Program-made: the position numbers and the translations under genes | In this document: positions 9,608 to 54,920 of the stretch, piece by piece | Layout: each line of letters begins with the position of its first letter | Numbering within the stretch: the stretch's first letter is position 1 | Origin: an uncultured cyanobacterium | Lineage (GTDB): Bacteria; Cyanobacteriota; Cyanobacteriia; PCC-6307; Cyanobiaceae | Reading direction: 5' to 3' | DNA length: 64,000 nt | Assembly (NCBI GenBank): GCA_963765575.1 | Contig: CAVXWZ010000002.1 | Coordinates: 544,001 to 608,000, forward strand | Notes under the pieces: model-generated | Told to the model about the DNA's origin: nothing | Seen by the model: the letters and a program-made list of their open reading frames with translations, nothing else | Database searches by the model: none

Positions 9608-10939
9608 ATGACACTGCCCGGCCTACCGCAAGGGATCACCGACCCCTGCGTGCACTGCGGCTTCTGCCTGCCCAGCTGCGCCAGCTACCGGGTGCTGGGC
9701 ACGGAGATGGACTCGCCCCGGGGCCGCATCCACGCCCTCAAGGCGATCGAGGCCGGTGAGCTGCAGCTCGATGCCACGGTGGCGCAGCACTTCGACAGCT
9801 GCCTGGGCTGCCTGGCCTGCGTGAGCGCCTGCCCGTCGGGGGTGCGCTACGACCAGCTGATCGAGGCCACCCGCCCCAAACTGAACGCACCCGAGCTGCG
9901 CACGCCGGCCCAGCGCGCCCTGCGCCGACTGCTGTTCGCCCTTCTCCCCTACCCCAAACGGCTGCGGGCGGTGCTCACGCCCCTGCGGGCCTACGCCGGC
10001 ACACCGCTGCAGGCCCTGGCGCGGCGCAGCGGCCTCACCAAGCTGTTCGGGCCCCAGCTCGAGGCGATGGAGCGGCTGCTGCCGGCACTGGCGCCGGAGG
10101 CCTTCCGCGACGACCTCCCCCGGGTGGTGCCCGCCCAGGGAGAGCGGCGGGCGCGGGTGGGGCTGGTGCTGGGCTGCGTGCAGCGGCTGTTCGATCCGGC
10201 GGTCAACCGGGCGGCGCTGGAGGTGCTCAGCGCCAACGGCATCGAGGTGGTGATTCCGGCGGAGCAGGGCTGCTGCGGGGCCGCCACCCACCACCAGGGC
10301 GAACTGGAGCAGACGCGGGAGCTGGCGAGCGCCCTGGTCGAGAGCTTCGCGGCGGCGGGACCGCTGGATGCGGTGCTGGTGGCCGCCTCCGGCTGCGGCC
10401 ACACGCTCAAGCACTACGACGCGATCCTGGCCGAGGAGCCCGACTGGGCGGAGCGCGGCGCGGCCTTCGCGGGGCAGGTGCGGGACGCCCATGAGTTCCT
10501 GGCAACGCTGGGGCTGAGCGCGGCCTTCCGCTCGCGGCTGGCGCCGCTGCAGCACGCCGACGGCAGTGCGGCCAGTGCCGAGCGGCCGCTGGCGGTGGCC
10601 TACCACGACGCCTGCCACATGCTCCACGGCCAGGGCATCCGCGAGCAGCCACGCCAGCTGCTGCGCCACATCCCCCACCTGCGGCTGAAGGAGGCGGTGG
10701 AGGCGGGCGTGTGCTGCGGCAGCGCCGGCATTTACAACCTGGTGCAGCCGGTGGAGGCGGCGGAGCTGGGCCAGATCAAGGCCGCCGACCTCTGCGGCAC
10801 TGGCGCCGAGCTGGCGGCGAGTGCCAACATCGGCTGCACACTGCAGATCCGCCAGCACATGGCCAGCCAGGACCAGCCCCTGCCGGTGCTGCACCCTCTG
10901 GAGCTGCTGCAGCGCAGCTGGCAAGCGGGCAGGCGATGA
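9608..10939 (+). CDS. glcF: Glycolate oxidase iron-sulfur subunit
   Basis: Two CxxCxxCxxxC ferredoxin motifs plus two CCG domains (QGCCGA, VCCGSAGIYN). Confidence 0.88.
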   Translation: MTLPGLPQGITDPCVHCGFCLPSCASYRVLGTEMDSPRGRIHALKAIEAGELQLDATVAQHFDSCLGCLACVSACPSGVRYDQLIEATRPKLNAPELRTPAQRALRRLLFALLPYPKRLRAVLTPLRAYAGTPLQALARRSGLTKLFGPQLEAMERLLPALAPEAFRDDLPRVVPAQGERRARVGLVLGCVQRLFDPAVNRAALEVLSANGIEVVIPAEQGCCGAATHHQGELEQTRELASALVESFAAAGPLDAVLVAASGCGHTLKHYDAILAEEPDWAERGAAFAGQVRDAHEFLATLGLSAAFRSRLAPLQHADGSAASAERPLAVAYHDACHMLHGQGIREQPRQLLRHIPHLRLKEAVEAGVCCGSAGIYNLVQPVEAAELGQIKAADLCGTGAELAASANIGCTLQIRQHMASQDQPLPVLHPLELLQRSWQAGRR

Positions 10940-11676
10940 GCCGCGAAGCGCCCAACCTGGCCGTGCTGATTGATTCCGACAACGCCCAGGCGGCCGTGAT
11001 CAGCGACCTGCTGGCGGAGATCGCCCAGGTGGGCACCGCCACCGTGAAACGCGCCTACGGCGACTGGACCACGCCGCAGCTGGGCAGCTGGAAGGAGGTG
11101 CTGAATGTGCACGCGATCGTGCCGGTGCAGCAGTTCAGCTACACCAGCGGCAAGAACGCCACCGATTCGGCCCTGATCATCGACGCCATGGACCTGATGC
11201 ACAGCGGCCGGGTGGAGGGCTTCTGCCTGGTGTCGTCAGACAGCGATTTCACCCGCCTGGCCACCCGCATCCGCGAGCAGGGGCTGCTGGTAATCGGCTT
11301 CGGCGAGCGCAAAACACCCAAGCCCTTCGTGGCCGCCTGCGACCGCTTTCTTTACACCGACATCCTCAAGCGCGGCGGCAGCTCCAGTGGCGGGAGCCGT
11401 CGCTCGGCCGGCGACAGCAGCGACGACAGCGCGCCACCACTGAAGCCTTTCCTGAGCGAGGCGATCATGGCTGTGACCCAGGAGGACGGCTGGGCGCCGC
11501 TGGGCATGGTGGGCAGCCTGCTGCAAAAGAACGACCCCTCCTTCGATGCCCGCAGCTATGGCTTCCGCAAACTGAGCGAGTTGGTGAAGGCCCAGACCTA
11601 CCTCAGGGTGAAGGAAGTGCCGATGGCCCAAGGCAGCCAGCAGATGCATCTGTTCGTGCAGGTGCATGGGGGGTGA
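10936..11676 (+). CDS. NYN-domain (PIN-like, LabA/DUF88) protein with C-terminal OST-HTH/LOTUS domain
   Basis: LIDSDN, KRAYGDW, KNATDSALIIDAMD and LVSSDSDFTRLA; C-terminal PSFDARSYGFRKLSELV; ATGA overlap with the glcF stop. Confidence 0.85.
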   Translation: MSREAPNLAVLIDSDNAQAAVISDLLAEIAQVGTATVKRAYGDWTTPQLGSWKEVLNVHAIVPVQQFSYTSGKNATDSALIIDAMDLMHSGRVEGFCLVSSDSDFTRLATRIREQGLLVIGFGERKTPKPFVAACDRFLYTDILKRGGSSSGGSRRSAGDSSDDSAPPLKPFLSEAIMAVTQEDGWAPLGMVGSLLQKNDPSFDARSYGFRKLSELVKAQTYLRVKEVPMAQGSQQMHLFVQVHGG

Positions 11677-11697
11677 GGGTGGCAGGACTGGGCCGTG

Positions 11698-11857
11698 GAT
11701 ACCGGGTCCGCCTAACAAGCCAGGCCGCGGAGAGGGCAGCTTCAGACGTGTGATTGACACTGGCATTGAGGCTCTGGGAAGCGCAATGCAAAGCGGGATA
11801 GGCGGCAAGGGGCTGGCTACGCTGGTGGTTAACGGACCCGCATAATGAGCGTTAGGC
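11698..11857 (+). mobile_element. Long attC-like site, left arm degenerate (attC0)
   Basis: R' core GTTAGGC at 11851; inner arms CGGGTCCG (11703) / CGGACCCG (11833); CCGCCTAAC (11708) is a perfect complement of GTTAGGCGG (11851). Confidence 0.6.
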
Positions 11858-11942
11858 GGGCGAGAGCGTTACCAGCCTTCTGCAAGCCTCCCTGACGAAG
11901 CTCTAGGCTGTCAGCAACAGAGCCAAGCATTCATCTATCCGC

Positions 11943-12788
11943 ATGCCAAGTGCCACGATCAAAATATTCTTGGTTCATGGTGATCCGAAACGACTGCGAA
12001 CTGCTGAGATATCTAACTGGACCGGAAAAGCTGTCGCTGGGCCAAGAAGCGAGTTTGAAGGCGTCATCTCACGTGAAGAAGCCGAAGGCTCTGGCATCTA
12101 TCTTTTGACGGGTTCAGATCCTGAAAGTGGCAAGCCTTCAATCTACGTCGGAGAGGCCGAATGCATTCGTGATCGCCTGAAGTCTCACCTGCAAAAGGAT
12201 TTCTGGAATCAGGTTGCCTTCTTCGTCAGCAAAGACGAGAATCTTACCAAGGCTCATATCAGGCACCTGGAGGGAAAACTGATTGAGAAAGCACGCGAAG
12301 CCTCTCGAGCTGTAGTTGTTAACAATCAGAGCAGTGGCGCTCGTCTTCCTGAGTCGGACCGAGCGGATCTAGAGACTTTCCTTGAGAAAGTAAATCAACT
12401 CCTGCCTGTTCTTGGGATCGAACTCCTAGTCCCGACAGTAGCCAAACCCGAAGCCGAATTGGAAGTAGAGATGTTGTCATGTGAAATCAAGGGAGTCAAA
12501 GCACGAGGGCACCTGTCTCCGAACGGCTTTGTCATTCTTTCGGGCTCCCAGGCGGTGCTGAATGAGCGCCCATCAACGCAGAAGTATCCCTGGGCTCTGA
12601 ACATGAGGCTGAAGCTCAAGGAAGAAGGCTCTCTTGCTATCGCAACAGACGCTCTTGTCTTTACAAGAGATGTCGAGTTCACCAGTCCGAGTGCCGCGGC
12701 GGCAGTAGTCCATGGCGGACATGCCAATGGGCTTACTGCATGGAAGGATTCAGAGGGTCGCACCCTTAAGCAGGTTGAAGCCGTATAA
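11943..12788 (+). CDS. Cassette 1: GIY-YIG nuclease with C-terminal DUF4357-like domain
   Basis: GIYLLTG...IYVGEAECIRDRLKSH; C-terminal GFVILSGS...FTSPSAAAAVVHGGHANGLTAWK. Confidence 0.82.
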   Translation: MPSATIKIFLVHGDPKRLRTAEISNWTGKAVAGPRSEFEGVISREEAEGSGIYLLTGSDPESGKPSIYVGEAECIRDRLKSHLQKDFWNQVAFFVSKDENLTKAHIRHLEGKLIEKAREASRAVVVNNQSSGARLPESDRADLETFLEKVNQLLPVLGIELLVPTVAKPEAELEVEMLSCEIKGVKARGHLSPNGFVILSGSQAVLNERPSTQKYPWALNMRLKLKEEGSLAIATDALVFTRDVEFTSPSAAAAVVHGGHANGLTAWKDSEGRTLKQVEAV

Positions 12789-12869
12789 CATCCAGATACA
12801 GAAGGCAGGAGCGGAAAGCTGGCTCCTTGACTCTGATCAAGTGCCCGCTTCTGATCTGGAGCGTTAGGG
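12783..12869 (+). mobile_element. attC site (attC1, 87 bp)
   Basis: R'' GTATAAC, 5-nt spacer, L'' GAT(A)CAGA with one extra base, L' TCTGATC, 6-nt spacer, R' GTTAGGG. Confidence 0.9.
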
Positions 12870-12889
12870 GTCAATAAGGCATTGAGACA

Positions 12890-13825
12890 ATGAAAGGAAA
12901 CGGAATGGACGCGCTAGAAAAGCACCTCAAGCAATGGAAGCAGATATCTGATCGATTGCACGGGCAGTTAGGGCCCGTTATGGAAGCGCAGAAGGCCATT
13001 GAGAAAGCTTTGCGCCCAACTCTTGAGTTACAGAAAGCTCTCAAATCTCCATTGGAGCCCTTCCTGGAAGAGCAAAGGATACTTCAGAAAACTTTCGAGG
13101 GTATAAAGTTACCCAGCTATCAGTTGCCTGACTTAAGTCCTTTTACAAAGGAAATTGAACAATACCAAAAATCTCTCAGTGGCATTATTAGTCCCGCCTT
13201 TGAGGAATTGCAGCGCTCTTTTGAAGAGCTACCTCCAAGAATTCAAGAGGCTCTGCTATTGCTGGCACAACACGGTTGGTATTTAGATTTCAATATGCCA
13301 CTTTCAAGTCTCTGGGAAATTAAGAAGGCAATATCCAGTGGCGAGATCGAAGAGGTAGAAGAGGCGCTAGTAGAATATTTTGAAGGTCAACTGGATGAAA
13401 TAGAAAAATCAATTAACGCTCAATTCCCACATAGATCGCATATCATAAGCTCTGCTGTTGAGGCGCATCGTAACGACGAATACTTCCTGTCAATCCCCGT
13501 GTTGCTGGCGCAAACAGACGGAGTATGCAAAGAAGTTGTAGATCAGTACTTATTTATGAAAAAAGATAGGAAGCCACGAACTGCTATTTATGTTGAGCAA
13601 GTAGCGGCGGACACTTTTAAAGCTGCACTATTAAGTCCATTGGCGGCCAGTTCACCAATAAGTGCCTCTGAGCACGAACGTGAAGCGGGTTTTGATCTTC
13701 TCAATAGGCATATGGTCCTGCACGGTGAGTCATTGGACTACGGAAATAAAACAAACAGTTTAAAAGCGATTTCGCTTATGAATTACGTATCGCAGGTACT
13801 GAAGCCAGATGCAGACTACCCCTAA
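12890..13825 (+). CDS. Cassette 2: hypothetical protein with helical N-terminus and C-terminal HEPN-like RxxxxH motif
   Basis: 311-aa AT-rich ORF (alternative start at 12905); LNRHMVLHG near the C-terminus; bounded by attC1 and attC2. Confidence 0.75.
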   Translation: MKGNGMDALEKHLKQWKQISDRLHGQLGPVMEAQKAIEKALRPTLELQKALKSPLEPFLEEQRILQKTFEGIKLPSYQLPDLSPFTKEIEQYQKSLSGIISPAFEELQRSFEELPPRIQEALLLLAQHGWYLDFNMPLSSLWEIKKAISSGEIEEVEEALVEYFEGQLDEIEKSINAQFPHRSHIISSAVEAHRNDEYFLSIPVLLAQTDGVCKEVVDQYLFMKKDRKPRTAIYVEQVAADTFKAALLSPLAASSPISASEHEREAGFDLLNRHMVLHGESLDYGNKTNSLKAISLMNYVSQVLKPDADYP

Positions 13826-13900
13826 CAAGAACGTAAACTCGGACGCATTTTTTATTCGCTGCGCTCACTACAAATGCGCCGGTTACGGCAAGCGTTACAC
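13820..13900 (+). mobile_element. attC site (attC2, 81 bp)
   Basis: R'' CCCTAAC, 5-nt spacer, L'' CGT(A)AAC(T), inner stem GCATTT/AAATGC, L' GGTTACG, 6-nt spacer, R' GTTACAC. Confidence 0.9.
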
Positions 13901-13919
13901 TTACCAAAGGAAGAGACAT

Positions 13920-14395
13920 ATGAAGATTTTACTGGTCGGCGCAACAGGCACGATTGGAACTGCTGTAGCACATAAACTCGAAGCGCGGCACGAGGTCTTG
14001 TGCGCTAGCCATACCGGTGGGGCGCTCACGGTGGACCTAGCAGACCCTCTCATGGGCCAGGTGAACCTTGTCCGCCTCGGCATCGAGCTCGTCGCCAACG
14101 GGGGCTCCTTCACACTGACGAGCGGGATTGCGAGTCGGCAGCCGATGCCCGGCGGTGCGGTGATCAGCTTGGTAATGCCGGGCTGGAAGGATTTATACGC
14201 GCGGCGGCATTGGAGCTCCCCCGTGGTGTCCGTGTCAATGCAGTCGCTCCCGGTTGGGTGCGGGAGACGCTCGTGGCGATGAAGGCGGACCCCAGTTCTG
14301 GGGTGCCAGCGGCGCAGGTGGCGCAGACCTATGTGAGGTCGGTCGAGGGACTCATGACCGGACAAGTCCTCGATGCAATCGCTGGAGCTGGCTAA
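13920..14395 (+). pseudogene. Cassette 3: short-chain dehydrogenase/reductase, internally deleted and frameshifted
   Basis: MKILLVGATGTIG Rossmann start; VDLADP is joined directly to LMGQVNLVR (the central segment typical of this family is absent); frame change near 14172 into ELPRGVRVNAVAPGWV. Confidence 0.8.
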
Positions 14396-14515
14396 CCCAT
14401 CGTTCGAGGTGAAGAAGATGGGCACATGTCACTGCGAAACTTCCCGGAAATGGGGCGCTGGCCCTGCAGGCACGCCCCGCCAGGGCCAGCAGTGACCTCA
14501 ACGTCGACATCAACA
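14390..14515 (+). mobile_element. Degenerate attC site (attC3)
   Basis: R'' GGCTAAC, 5-nt spacer, L'' GTT(C)GAGG, L' CCTCAAC, 6-nt spacer; the R' position reads ATC instead of GTT. Confidence 0.7.
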
Positions 14516-14800
14516 GCATGTGTGCGGGTCTTGCCGTGATCAATCAGGAGCTCGGCGCCACGGCCGCCCGGGCACACCGATGGGTCGATGCATGCAGAAG
14601 GACCTGCTGATCACGGCGGCGCAATACGGGGCGCTGGTCTGATCGTGCAATCTCAGCCGCGCCATGGGGCGTTCTCTGGCTGCAGCAACGCCGCGAGGCG
14701 GCGCTCCAGGGCGGGCTGGGGCTGCCGGTCGGCCTGGCCAGCCCCCAGCAGCCCCCGGCAGCAACGAGGATGGCAGCGGTCTTTCGCCACGCCCGCTCCC

Positions 14801-15694
14801 GTGCAACTCTCCCTTGGCTGCCGGCTGGAGCTGCAATGTGAGGCGCCCACGCCGGTGCTCACCCTGGTGCGGCCCCACCTCGGTCTGTTGCCGGATCTGC
14901 AGGCCCCGGAACGGGTGGACCTCAGCCCCGATCGCACCCTCGAGGCGCTCACCGATCGCAGCGGCAACCGCTGGAGCCGGATGGTGGCCCCCAGCGGCGT
15001 CACCCGCTTTCACTACGCCACCAGCATCAGCTGCCCGGACGGGCCCGATCCGGTGCAGCCCTCCGCCCGCCAGTGCCCGGTGGAGGCCTTGCCGATCGAC
15101 ACCTACCCCTTTCTCACCGCCAGCACCTACTGCGACACGCCAGCCCTGATGTCGCTGGCCTGGCGGGAGTTCGGTGCGACCCCCGCGGGCTGGAAGCGCG
15201 TGCAGGCCATCTGCGACTGGGTGCATGGGCACATCCGTTTCGATTACGAGGCGGTGCAGCCCCACAAGACCGCCAGCCACACCCTCAGCGACGCCGCCGG
15301 TGTGTGCCGCGACTTCGCCCATCTGGCCATCAGCTTCTGCCGCTGCCTCAACATCCCCGCCCGCTACTGCACCGGCTACCTCGGGTACACGGGCATCCCG
15401 GTGGGCGAAGCGCCGGTGGACTTCTCCGCCTGGTTCGAGGCCTTCCTCGGCGATCGCTGGTATGTGTTCGACGCCCGCCACAACATCCCCCGCTGCGGCC
15501 GGGTACTGATCGCCCGCGGCCGCGACGCCGGCGATGTGCCCTTCCTGCTCTCCTTCGGTGAGCACCAGCTGCTCAGCTTCGAGGTGATCACCGAGGAGCT
15601 GATCCCCAGCCCGCTCAGCGGCACCGCCACGGGTGGGACCTCCGGCAGGGAGTCGATGGCCCTGGGAACTGCAGATGTGGGCAGTTCAACCTAA
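14801..15694 (+). CDS. Transglutaminase-like family protein
   Basis: GVCRDFAHLAISFCRCLNIPARYCTGYLG and DFSAWFEAFLGDRWYVFDAR; probable GTG start at 14801. Confidence 0.85.
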   Translation: MQLSLGCRLELQCEAPTPVLTLVRPHLGLLPDLQAPERVDLSPDRTLEALTDRSGNRWSRMVAPSGVTRFHYATSISCPDGPDPVQPSARQCPVEALPIDTYPFLTASTYCDTPALMSLAWREFGATPAGWKRVQAICDWVHGHIRFDYEAVQPHKTASHTLSDAAGVCRDFAHLAISFCRCLNIPARYCTGYLGYTGIPVGEAPVDFSAWFEAFLGDRWYVFDARHNIPRCGRVLIARGRDAGDVPFLLSFGEHQLLSFEVITEELIPSPLSGTATGGTSGRESMALGTADVGSST

Positions 15695-31560: not shown

Positions 31561-31634
<74 letters not shown>

Positions 31635-31692
31635 AGGAACCGGGCTGACGCCCAGCACTTGGTCATTATCCGCCACAGGTGATGATGGGCTG

Positions 31693-32106
31693 GAAAGCAG
31701 GCGAGGTGATCGCGATCAGGGGGCTGGCGGTCTTCGGGCCGCCGCTCCACCTGGTTGAGGAAAGTCCGGGCTCCCCAATGGCCAGGCTTGCTGGGTAACG
31801 CCCAGTGCGGGTGACCGTGAGGACAGTGCCACAGAAACACACCGCCGATGGCCCGGAGGCTCGCCTCCGCGGCACAGGCAAGGGTGCAAGGGTGCGGTAA
31901 GAGCGCACCAGCAGCATCGAGAGGTGCTGGCTCGGTAAACCCCGGCCGGGAGCAAGGCCCAGGGACAACGGTTGGCCATGACACCCGTCCCGCCACAAGT
32001 GCGCCGCTCGAGGCCGTCGGAGACGGCGGTCCCAGACAGATGATCGCCCCCCCGGGCGGCTACCGCCGCCTGCGGGTGAACAGAACCCGGCTTATGTCCT
32101 GCTTTC
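31693..32106 (+). ncRNA. rnpB: RNase P RNA (type A)
   Basis: GAGGAAAGTCCGGGCTC, CAGTGCCACAGAAA, GGTAAACCCC and AACAGAACCCGGCTTA; terminal pairing GAAAGCAGG/CCTGCTTTC. Confidence 0.96.
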
Positions 32107-32131
32107 ACCCCCTTCCAGTCCAGTCCCCGCC

Positions 32132-54658: not shown

Positions 54659-54765
54659 GATCGGTTGGGGCAAAGAACGGAACGGGAAGCGGCCGGTCTG
54701 CGGCCGAGGCGGGGTTCCGGTTCCGGTTGCCGAGATCGCTTCGCCCACCAGGACGGTGGGCGGCT

Positions 54766-54862
54766 CACTTCCCTGCGCCGGCATGACCCGGATCAGGTTC
54801 GGAGGGTGTGATCTCAGCCCTGGGTCGGACGGCGTGAAGCCGCTGACCGGGCACCCCTAGTG
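54766..54862 (-). ncRNA. TPP riboswitch
   Basis: Minus strand CTAGGGGTGC...GGGCTGAGATCACACCCTCCGAACCTGATCCGGGTCATGCCGGCGCAGGGAAG, upstream of thiC. Confidence 0.95.
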
Positions 54863-54920
54863 ACGCCCAGATCCTAGCCAGGCCACACCAATCCGGCCGA
54901 ACCGGCGCCCTTGGGGGGCA

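Follow-up and report, generated by a model that had tools for sequence, protein, structure and literature searches.

Here we describe a gene cassette array in the genome of an uncultured picocyanobacterium of the family Cyanobiaceae (assembly GCA_963765575.1; G000 in the handles used below, with C for contigs and L for compared loci), which is almost certainly headed by an integron attachment site, attI, of its own and has no integrase gene, intI, next to it. The array lies in a 64,000-nucleotide stretch of contig CAVXWZ010000002.1 (the window, G000:C2:544001-608000), and coordinates are positions in this window unless a contig or locus is named. It forms a patch of low GC content (guanine plus cytosine, down to 42%) inside DNA of 70% GC, in a genome of 2.71 Mb, 11 contigs and 99.97% completeness. 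Its GC and gene content, together with a match in a named Synechococcus, suggest a picocyanobacterium resembling Cyanobium or Synechococcus. Judging from sequence comparison, the array probably goes back to a co-oriented integron, in which intI reads toward its cassettes and from which intI was later deleted, and the crossover point G|TT of the remaining attI is probably still loaded with cassettes by an integrase, IntI, encoded elsewhere.

The attI occupies 11680..11853 on the forward strand and makes up the left end of the array, which a first-pass annotation of this DNA, based on the sequence alone, had missed. It is built of three related repeats, namely a near-palindromic repeat at 11697-11716, a half repeat at 11796-11806 and a core repeat with its L box at 11827-11846, and it ends at G|TT (11851-11853). 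The site is of the 4-nt spacer type; according to part of the text of PMC12614218, L and R boxes 4-5 bp apart are the attI spacing. A profile made of 21 intI-adjacent sites from other genomes, with no row from G000 (the leave-out profile), finds the window at 11695-11853 with E 1.9e-7, and the best match of the full model (22 rows, including the resident site of G000 and no intI-less site) on the reversed genome, which served as a control, has E 9.9. A profile was needed, as an exact motif pattern taken from this genome was found in 0 of 31 relatives because the attI types differ. DNA comparison gave no trace of intI near the site and no significant intI match in the window, in line with what the first-pass annotation had stated, and no match to the attI was found in phages. 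The possibility that 11710-11857, with its complementary ends, is a long attC site was rejected, since its L boxes stay unpaired, its fold has z -1.51 and the stretch matches attI. At many loci the left end of attI resembles a second simple site (AAC, 5 nt, GTT) that overlaps a 20-bp palindrome, an arrangement that is degenerate in the window.

Such a site regularly accompanies intI in this genus. Out of 30 intI loci, 25 have the full site of about 170 bp on the same strand behind intI, running to G|TT, and the remaining five are affected by contig ends, insertion sequences or truncated intI. The order in intI-adjacent sites is near-palindromic repeat, half repeat, core repeat and G|TT, followed by variable sequence, and the core type of attI follows the IntI tree. 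A conserved 10-nt motif was also seen about 30 nt before the start of intI (L001 and L027-L055), with unrelated host DNA further upstream; it may be a promoter or an insertion scar. The attI sites are far more numerous than the integrases: 161 attI matches in 30 of the 32 genomes of the genus vs 41 IntI matches in 24, and at least 339 attI matches in 62 of 151 genomes of the family vs 73 IntI matches in 51, where scoring was limited to 18 candidates per genome and the highest per-genome counts are thus lower bounds. No attI match was obtained in 89 of the 151 family genomes, including GC-rich genomes of 3 Mb with more than 1500 candidates. Two family genomes have IntI and no attI match; therefore the model misses some sites.

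For detailed comparison we used 69 sites, from 60 stretches chosen, with good assemblies favoured, among 150 listed as not beside a listed IntI, together with three of this genome and three of the locus described below; two stretches without a long match were dropped. Only the last 50-175 nt of intI are kept in seven of the sites, and in the other 62 no remnant of intI was found within about 1.5 kb upstream, one of these (L086) being maybe separated from its intI by an insertion sequence. GC falls downstream of attI in 53 of 56 sites. Considering the 58 sites away from full intI that have at least 2.5 kb downstream, attC sites were detected within 3 kb in 32, vs 3 of 58 shuffles.

The absence of remnants in 62 of 69 sites would also be expected if attI had spread without intI, i.e. 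if IntI excised a circle between an upstream secondary site and a downstream attC and re-inserted attI together with its cassettes, so that no intI ever stood in this place. This explanation would account for an attI lying 2-3 nt behind a host stop codon in the window, L079 and L084, for at least two attI types, none with intI, behind one and the same gene (below), and for four close tandem pairs of attI, 150-330 nt apart (L099, L106, L118 and L142), one of which (L099) has an intI 3' remnant ahead of its second site. On the other hand, the full series of intI decay is seen: in L143, L145, L146 and L148, pseudogenes that have lost internal parts still possess the 5' motif, the 3' end and attI, and L071 shares its flank with the remnant-bearing L075, so remnants fade below detection. 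The left junctions of truncated intI have, by eye, no common GWT motif, attI1 itself did not insert into genomes in the assay described in passages of 10.1101/2022.09.11.507474, and the right end of the array in the window is not a clean junction between attC and host DNA. We therefore regard travel of attI without intI as improbable. As the deletion series elsewhere retains attI, decay of intI in place is the simplest origin of the site in the window. A shared start behind tandem attI was also considered as the right half of an attI that is empty, an idea given up because attC sites are followed by the same start too.

The window's attI lies behind a gene with NYN and OST-HTH domains (10936..11676, forward strand), whose stop codon is 3 nt ahead of position 1 of the attI model, where in complete integrons the stop codon of intI is found. 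This locus was compared in 20 stretches from relatives, 17 of which include the end of the NYN gene. In five close relatives the NYN gene is followed directly by the transglutaminase-like gene that flanks the array on its right side, in two relatives an attI of a different type follows the NYN gene at a distance of 44 and 56 nt, and one has attI about 3.3 kb away on the opposite strand; G000, G002 and G019 together have at least two attI types behind it, none with intI. Content behind the NYN gene thus varies among relatives, as the first-pass annotation proposed to check, and of its description of a core region the part concerning the host genes on both flanks stands, the spot itself being a variable locus and not a stable core. 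The five empty sites are too diverged to fix the exact insertion point; about 170 bp left of the first GTT are missing from all of them, and likeness to them returns near 14690, at the transglutaminase-like gene.

These 170 bp bear directly on another reading of the array, as a plain cluster of attC sites lacking integrases (CALIN) whose cassettes entered at a secondary chromosomal site, attG, without any attI. The definition applies, with two attC on the same strand within 4 kb (at least two are asked for; 12783 and 13820) and no intI nearby, and insertion into attG is documented in passages of 10.1101/2022.09.11.507474. Yet the 170 bp absent from the empty sites are homologous to the site that stands behind intI, which makes this reading very improbable. 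The integrase-less array of the first-pass annotation is, in consequence, a CALIN by definition and not a bare attC cluster.

The attC sites themselves were largely described correctly before. Three co-oriented open reading frames have their stop codons in the TAA of a TAAC box, at 12786, 13823 and 14393, as claimed; they had been called AT-richer, which hardly applies to the third with 63% GC. The expected attC geometry was found for two of the three sites. attC1 (12783..12869, forward strand, 87 bp) is complete, with 7/7 matching L boxes, an extra base at position 4, spacers of 5 and 6 nt, and GTT; attC2 (13820..13900, forward strand, 81 bp) is complete as well, with 6/7 matching L boxes and GTT, and arrived with cassette 2. 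The third is a stump (14390..14409, forward strand) with R'', spacer and L'' only. A complete third site was rejected, for no GTT follows, the L boxes stay unpaired in the fold and the supposed L' at 14496-14502 lies inside a decayed host gene. In its first 17 nt the stump corresponds to the left arm found in a common family of attC: 55 of the 80 readable metagenome matches to this arm (85 found) are complete sites.

Bottom-strand folding, suggested in the first-pass annotation, gave a clear hairpin for attC1 (z -3.70, 0 of 200 shuffles as good). In its array form attC2 does not surpass its shuffles (z -0.66, 46 of 200 as good), though the stem of the L boxes forms, and with its own R' box it closes fully (-18.1 vs -11.6 kcal/mol, a gain of 6.5). 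With a loose attC grammar the genome had 25 hits and shuffles 19 and 14, so this grammar was replaced by a stricter one with folding, which has two hits in 11851-14520, attC1 and attC2; on 500 shuffles it gave zero hits in 496, one in four and two in none. No Rfam match was found in the array. attC1 is 80% alike to an attC of the integron resident in this genome, and the same attC family occurs in many relatives.

Cassette 1 (11852..12863, forward strand) carries a GIY-YIG-like/DUF4357 gene for 281 aa (11943-12788), a candidate anti-phage gene, and its start and end are complementary at 7/9 positions, as had been noted. Its protein matches DUF4357 with E 3.6e-19 and GIY-YIG weakly (E 0.03), and over its full length it matches PDC-S14 of PADLOC (E 3e-101), which is merely the label of a candidate system, for which the literature searched yielded no functional test; the main text of the preprint on defence systems 10.1101/2024.07.02.601686 has no mention of PDC-S14, GIY-YIG or DUF4357. 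In G023 (L131) a homolog with 83% identity occupies the first position after another attI, and its attC is of a different family.

Cassette 2 (12864..13894, forward strand; 44% GC) holds a gene for 311 aa (12890-13825) with no assigned family: Pfam, NCBIfam and PADLOC gave nothing above threshold and a protein atlas only unnamed clusters. All 9 bp at its start (12863-12871) are complementary to its end (13818-13826), exactly as reported. Proteins 78-89% identical to its product are mostly from Gammaproteobacteria, with ten close relatives among 11 loci; gene and attC together are 80-85% identical in DNA to the gammaproteobacterial copies, and the whole cassette with the same ends occurs at 78-85% DNA identity in four of the ten close loci (L119, L120, L122 and L123). 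Cassette 2 is foreign by these comparisons. The claim that foreign cassettes came from different donors is thus borne out for cassette 2, and it does not extend to attC1, which belongs to the family of the resident integron and of relatives. Both cassettes also occur among other neighbours, with the same ends (L119/L120/L122/L123) or as a homolog (L131). An attI-like site (L123:1313-1465) also precedes cassette 2 in Synechococcus sp. HJ21-Hayes, and the stretch compared there gave no match to intI. No coverage of cassette 2 was obtained in four metagenome runs (X1 to X4), a result which is uninformative.

Cassette 3 is decayed (13895..14409, forward strand) and consists of a short-chain dehydrogenase pseudogene (13920-14395), which has suffered an internal deletion as well as a frameshift near 14173 and was recognised by pieces of PRK07578 below the cut-off. 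The dehydrogenase region gave only two short matches in plasmids and no match in the 85 metagenome loci. An extra base is present in runs X1 and X4 at 14173, the position of the frameshift, and runs X2, X3 and X4 skip the 298 nt of 14320-14617, the attC3 stump included.

The supposition that an IntI is encoded elsewhere was confirmed by a genome search: a single intact IntI is encoded 229.8 kb upstream of the array, at C2:324905-325840 (TIGR02249, 463.7 bits vs a cut-off of 265), with an open frame of 326 aa and the catalytic residues R-K-H-R-H-Y (motifs at 140, 166, 273, 297 and 307). The gene is oriented toward its cassettes in a co-oriented integron, G000:C2:324869-328330 (L003:14869-18330), which comprises intI, attI, a MazE/MazF cassette, a PemK-like cassette and a DUF1349 gene and ends on the right with GTT at the stop codon of the next host gene. 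The exact insertion point at this locus, whose host genes we take to be mtnB and mtnA, could not be fixed. The resident cassettes (L004:1909-3385) are 94-97% identical to copies in G002, G007, G008 and G012, where the core genes are 80-89% alike; the excess of cassette over core-gene likeness points to recent cassette exchange. Two further intI-less attI are present on C11 (leave-out profile, E 1e-6 and 6.7e-4), and both stand at the head of cassettes that are low in GC and have attC: the array at C11:393634-395600 has a HicB-like gene and that at C11:664049-665500 a DUF4160/DUF2442 pair (L025 and L026). The first of them stands behind a hydrogenase-like gene, presumably hoxH, a position at which an attI without intI is found in seven relatives as well. 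In total, G000 has four attI and one intact intI. A second, decayed intI with the upstream motif and without attI was found at C1:347594-347870, behind a gene that we assume to be of the glutamine-synthetase kind, and several relatives have a full intI behind the same gene; the lineage has therefore hosted other integrases.

Turnover at the crossover suggests that attI sites without intI are still in use. In 43 pairs of sites with the same upstream flank, identity drops from 0.68 over the 30 nt that precede G|TT to 0.31 behind it, with the reservation that a single locus supplies 28 of the pairs, that related genomes do not count as independent and that nine of the 69 sites were left out having no anchor. 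Orthologous intI-less sites are up to 89% alike, and no pair from different genomes shares the first 600 nt behind G|TT. G012, a closed genome, has an identical gene-less first cassette of 138 nt at two sites that lack intI and differ in type. A gene-less cassette of about 138 nt is the first one behind six attI (L028, L033, L072, L073, L074 and L086), identical within G012 and within G008, and may carry a promoter. The window's own site could be followed in the metagenomes: runs X1 and X4 show the same attI followed by cassette 1, X1 holding also a more distant strain with an empty locus, and in run X2 a contig of 195 nt matches 11684-11853 with one difference and continues in other letters right after GTT. 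On sequence grounds the window's site appears to have taken up something new, not surely through IntI. The new element is the start of a recurring one, possibly a mobile element targeting att sites, which begins with GTT and a short hairpin and encodes a tyrosine recombinase of about 300 aa (L162-L178, L030:195-1323); there are 17 copies in nine of the 32 genomes, nine at attI, three behind attC-like ends and five elsewhere.

Several observations weigh against an array that is still loaded by IntI, and part of them would agree better with a relic, static since its cognate intI was lost, in which the differences after G|TT are older or are due to recombination between strains or to a self-inserting element. 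The core of the window's attI groups with the IntI clade of L029-L034 and not with that of the resident enzyme, no IntI match was obtained in 13 of the 62 attI-bearing genomes of the family, and cassette 3 with attC3 is decayed. The X2 observation rests on a single contig of depth 4.9 that ends 8 nt short of the NYN stop codon, and since the element found there has, in several genomes, its own tyrosine recombinase, its insertion need not be the work of IntI. Irrespective of the relic, the attC sites of the different arrays in G000 are 73-80% alike and not identical, no cassette is duplicated between these arrays, the leave-out profile finds the resident attI with E 0.36 only, the attC grammar detects nothing at 26 of the 58 sites, the reservation on the 43 pairs applies, a sigma-70 scan that may not fit this organism gave no promoter consensus in 11600-12000, and intI was not found behind the NYN gene in any of the 17 relatives with its end.

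Against the relic stand the orthologous sites, which can be aligned through their upstream flank, where no intI intervenes, up to a sharp break at G|TT, the identical cassette at two intI-less sites of one closed genome, and the motif columns of the 62 remnant-free sites, which equal the intI-adjacent columns, a count biased by the profile with which the sites were found. Taking all this together, we consider the relic unlikely, and we think it likely that attI has remained in use after the loss of intI. Which enzyme would do the loading is less clear: because the type of the window's site is mismatched and the resident attI reaches only E 0.36, we judge service by the resident enzyme to be slightly less probable than an even chance.

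The course of events that we favour, loss of intI from a co-oriented integron with continued use of its attI, can be outlined as follows. In this lineage a conserved site of about 170 bp, which ends in G|TT, stands behind intI on the same strand, and a site of this kind is present in the window. Successive internal deletions would have removed intI and spared attI, a process seen in relatives; behind the NYN gene nothing of intI remains, and since no relative among the 17 combines NYN gene and intI, we can only infer the loss at this spot. IntI joins the folded bottom strand of a cassette attC to the double-stranded attI at G|TT. As insertion takes place at this point of attI, the newest cassette comes first, and the order of insertion would have been the dehydrogenase, then cassette 2 and then cassette 1. 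Loading after the loss of intI may, by the comparative data, be due to the resident IntI 230 kb away or to IntI genes transiently present in the lineage, and cassette 1 may be expressed by read-through from the genes upstream of attI, glcF-like and NYN, or from a promoter inside attI that escaped recognition. On this view the genome would operate with four docks and a single integrase. A more radical version, in which attI docks are seeded without intI and one to three IntI serve up to at least 18 of them behind host genes, the window holding one, seems to us rather doubtful.

CALINs and co-oriented integrons are already known, and as a CALIN the present array is ordinary. In excerpts of PMC4889954, CALINs are arrays without intI nearby, for which loss of intI is one proposed origin and 95% of which have no visible pseudogene; their origin and status are stated as open there and in parts of PMC8618304, to some extent because attI outside classes 1-3 escapes detection. 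In the available passages of PMC4889954 and 10.1101/2022.02.28.482270, attI is not searched outside classes 1-3. Frequent inactivation of intI is established in this body of work, to which passages of 10.1101/2022.02.06.479319, PMC9892861 and PMC3108266 also belong. The array in the window shares with CALINs at least two attC on one strand, the lack of nearby intI and an IntI elsewhere in the genome. It differs in that CALINs are known, in these sources as far as seen, as donors of cassettes for the attI of an integron, whereas the window's array has an attI of its own and apparently takes cassettes. In passages of PMC3607928, Treponema has co-oriented integrons with intI transcribed toward attI and cassettes, and its IntI clusters with that of Synechococcus; the resident integron and 25 of the 30 genus loci have the same layout. 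That account, as far as available, concerns one locus with attI not analysed, whereas here attI outnumbers intI about 4:1 and its type follows the IntI clade. Single attC sites lacking integrases (SALIN) and the attG route, in the parts seen of 10.1101/2022.09.11.507474, also have cassettes far from intI, placed by IntI in trans; attG is, however, a short GWT site of the host, and our first junction is an attI of about 170 bp lacking in the empty sites. The Xanthomonas CALINs of PMC12444791 similarly stand at recurring loci away from intI, with widespread intI decay; in contrast to our case, the passages at hand report no attI, and one CALIN is frozen. PMC8876359 contained, in the part available, nothing relevant. 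In the literature searched, with IntegronFinder supplements and most subscription papers lying outside the search, we found no attI-bearing intI-less arrays and no report of many attI per genome in picocyanobacteria. What is apparently new is therefore an intI-less array headed by attI, several per genome across the family, and apparently still loaded.

The array is bordered on the left, ahead of the NYN gene, by a gene for an Fe-S protein (9608..10939, forward strand; Pfam CCG and Fer4_8), which we take to be glcF, and on the right by the transglutaminase-like gene (14588..15694, forward strand), conserved from about 14740. A remnant of a small host gene (14458..14636, forward strand) lies outside the array and matches DNA near the same locus in G002, G009, G012 and G019 at 72-80%. 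Elsewhere in the window, at 31561-32109 and 54753-54868, a tRNA, RNase P RNA and a thiamine pyrophosphate (TPP) riboswitch were noticed, all of them ordinary.

Obtained with a lineage-specific profile, our results indicate that a complete attI is retained in many arrays without intI, and that these arrays diverge from genome to genome precisely at the crossover. If the proposed use of these sites is true, the unit of the integron would be the genome and not the locus, with one integrase and many expressed first positions, and "orphan" arrays would not be dead relics. The natural pairs of IntI clade and attI type offer material for gauging the specificity of the integrases. For picocyanobacteria, such a system would be a concrete engine of their small variable islands, bringing in toxin-antitoxin and candidate anti-phage genes from other phyla.

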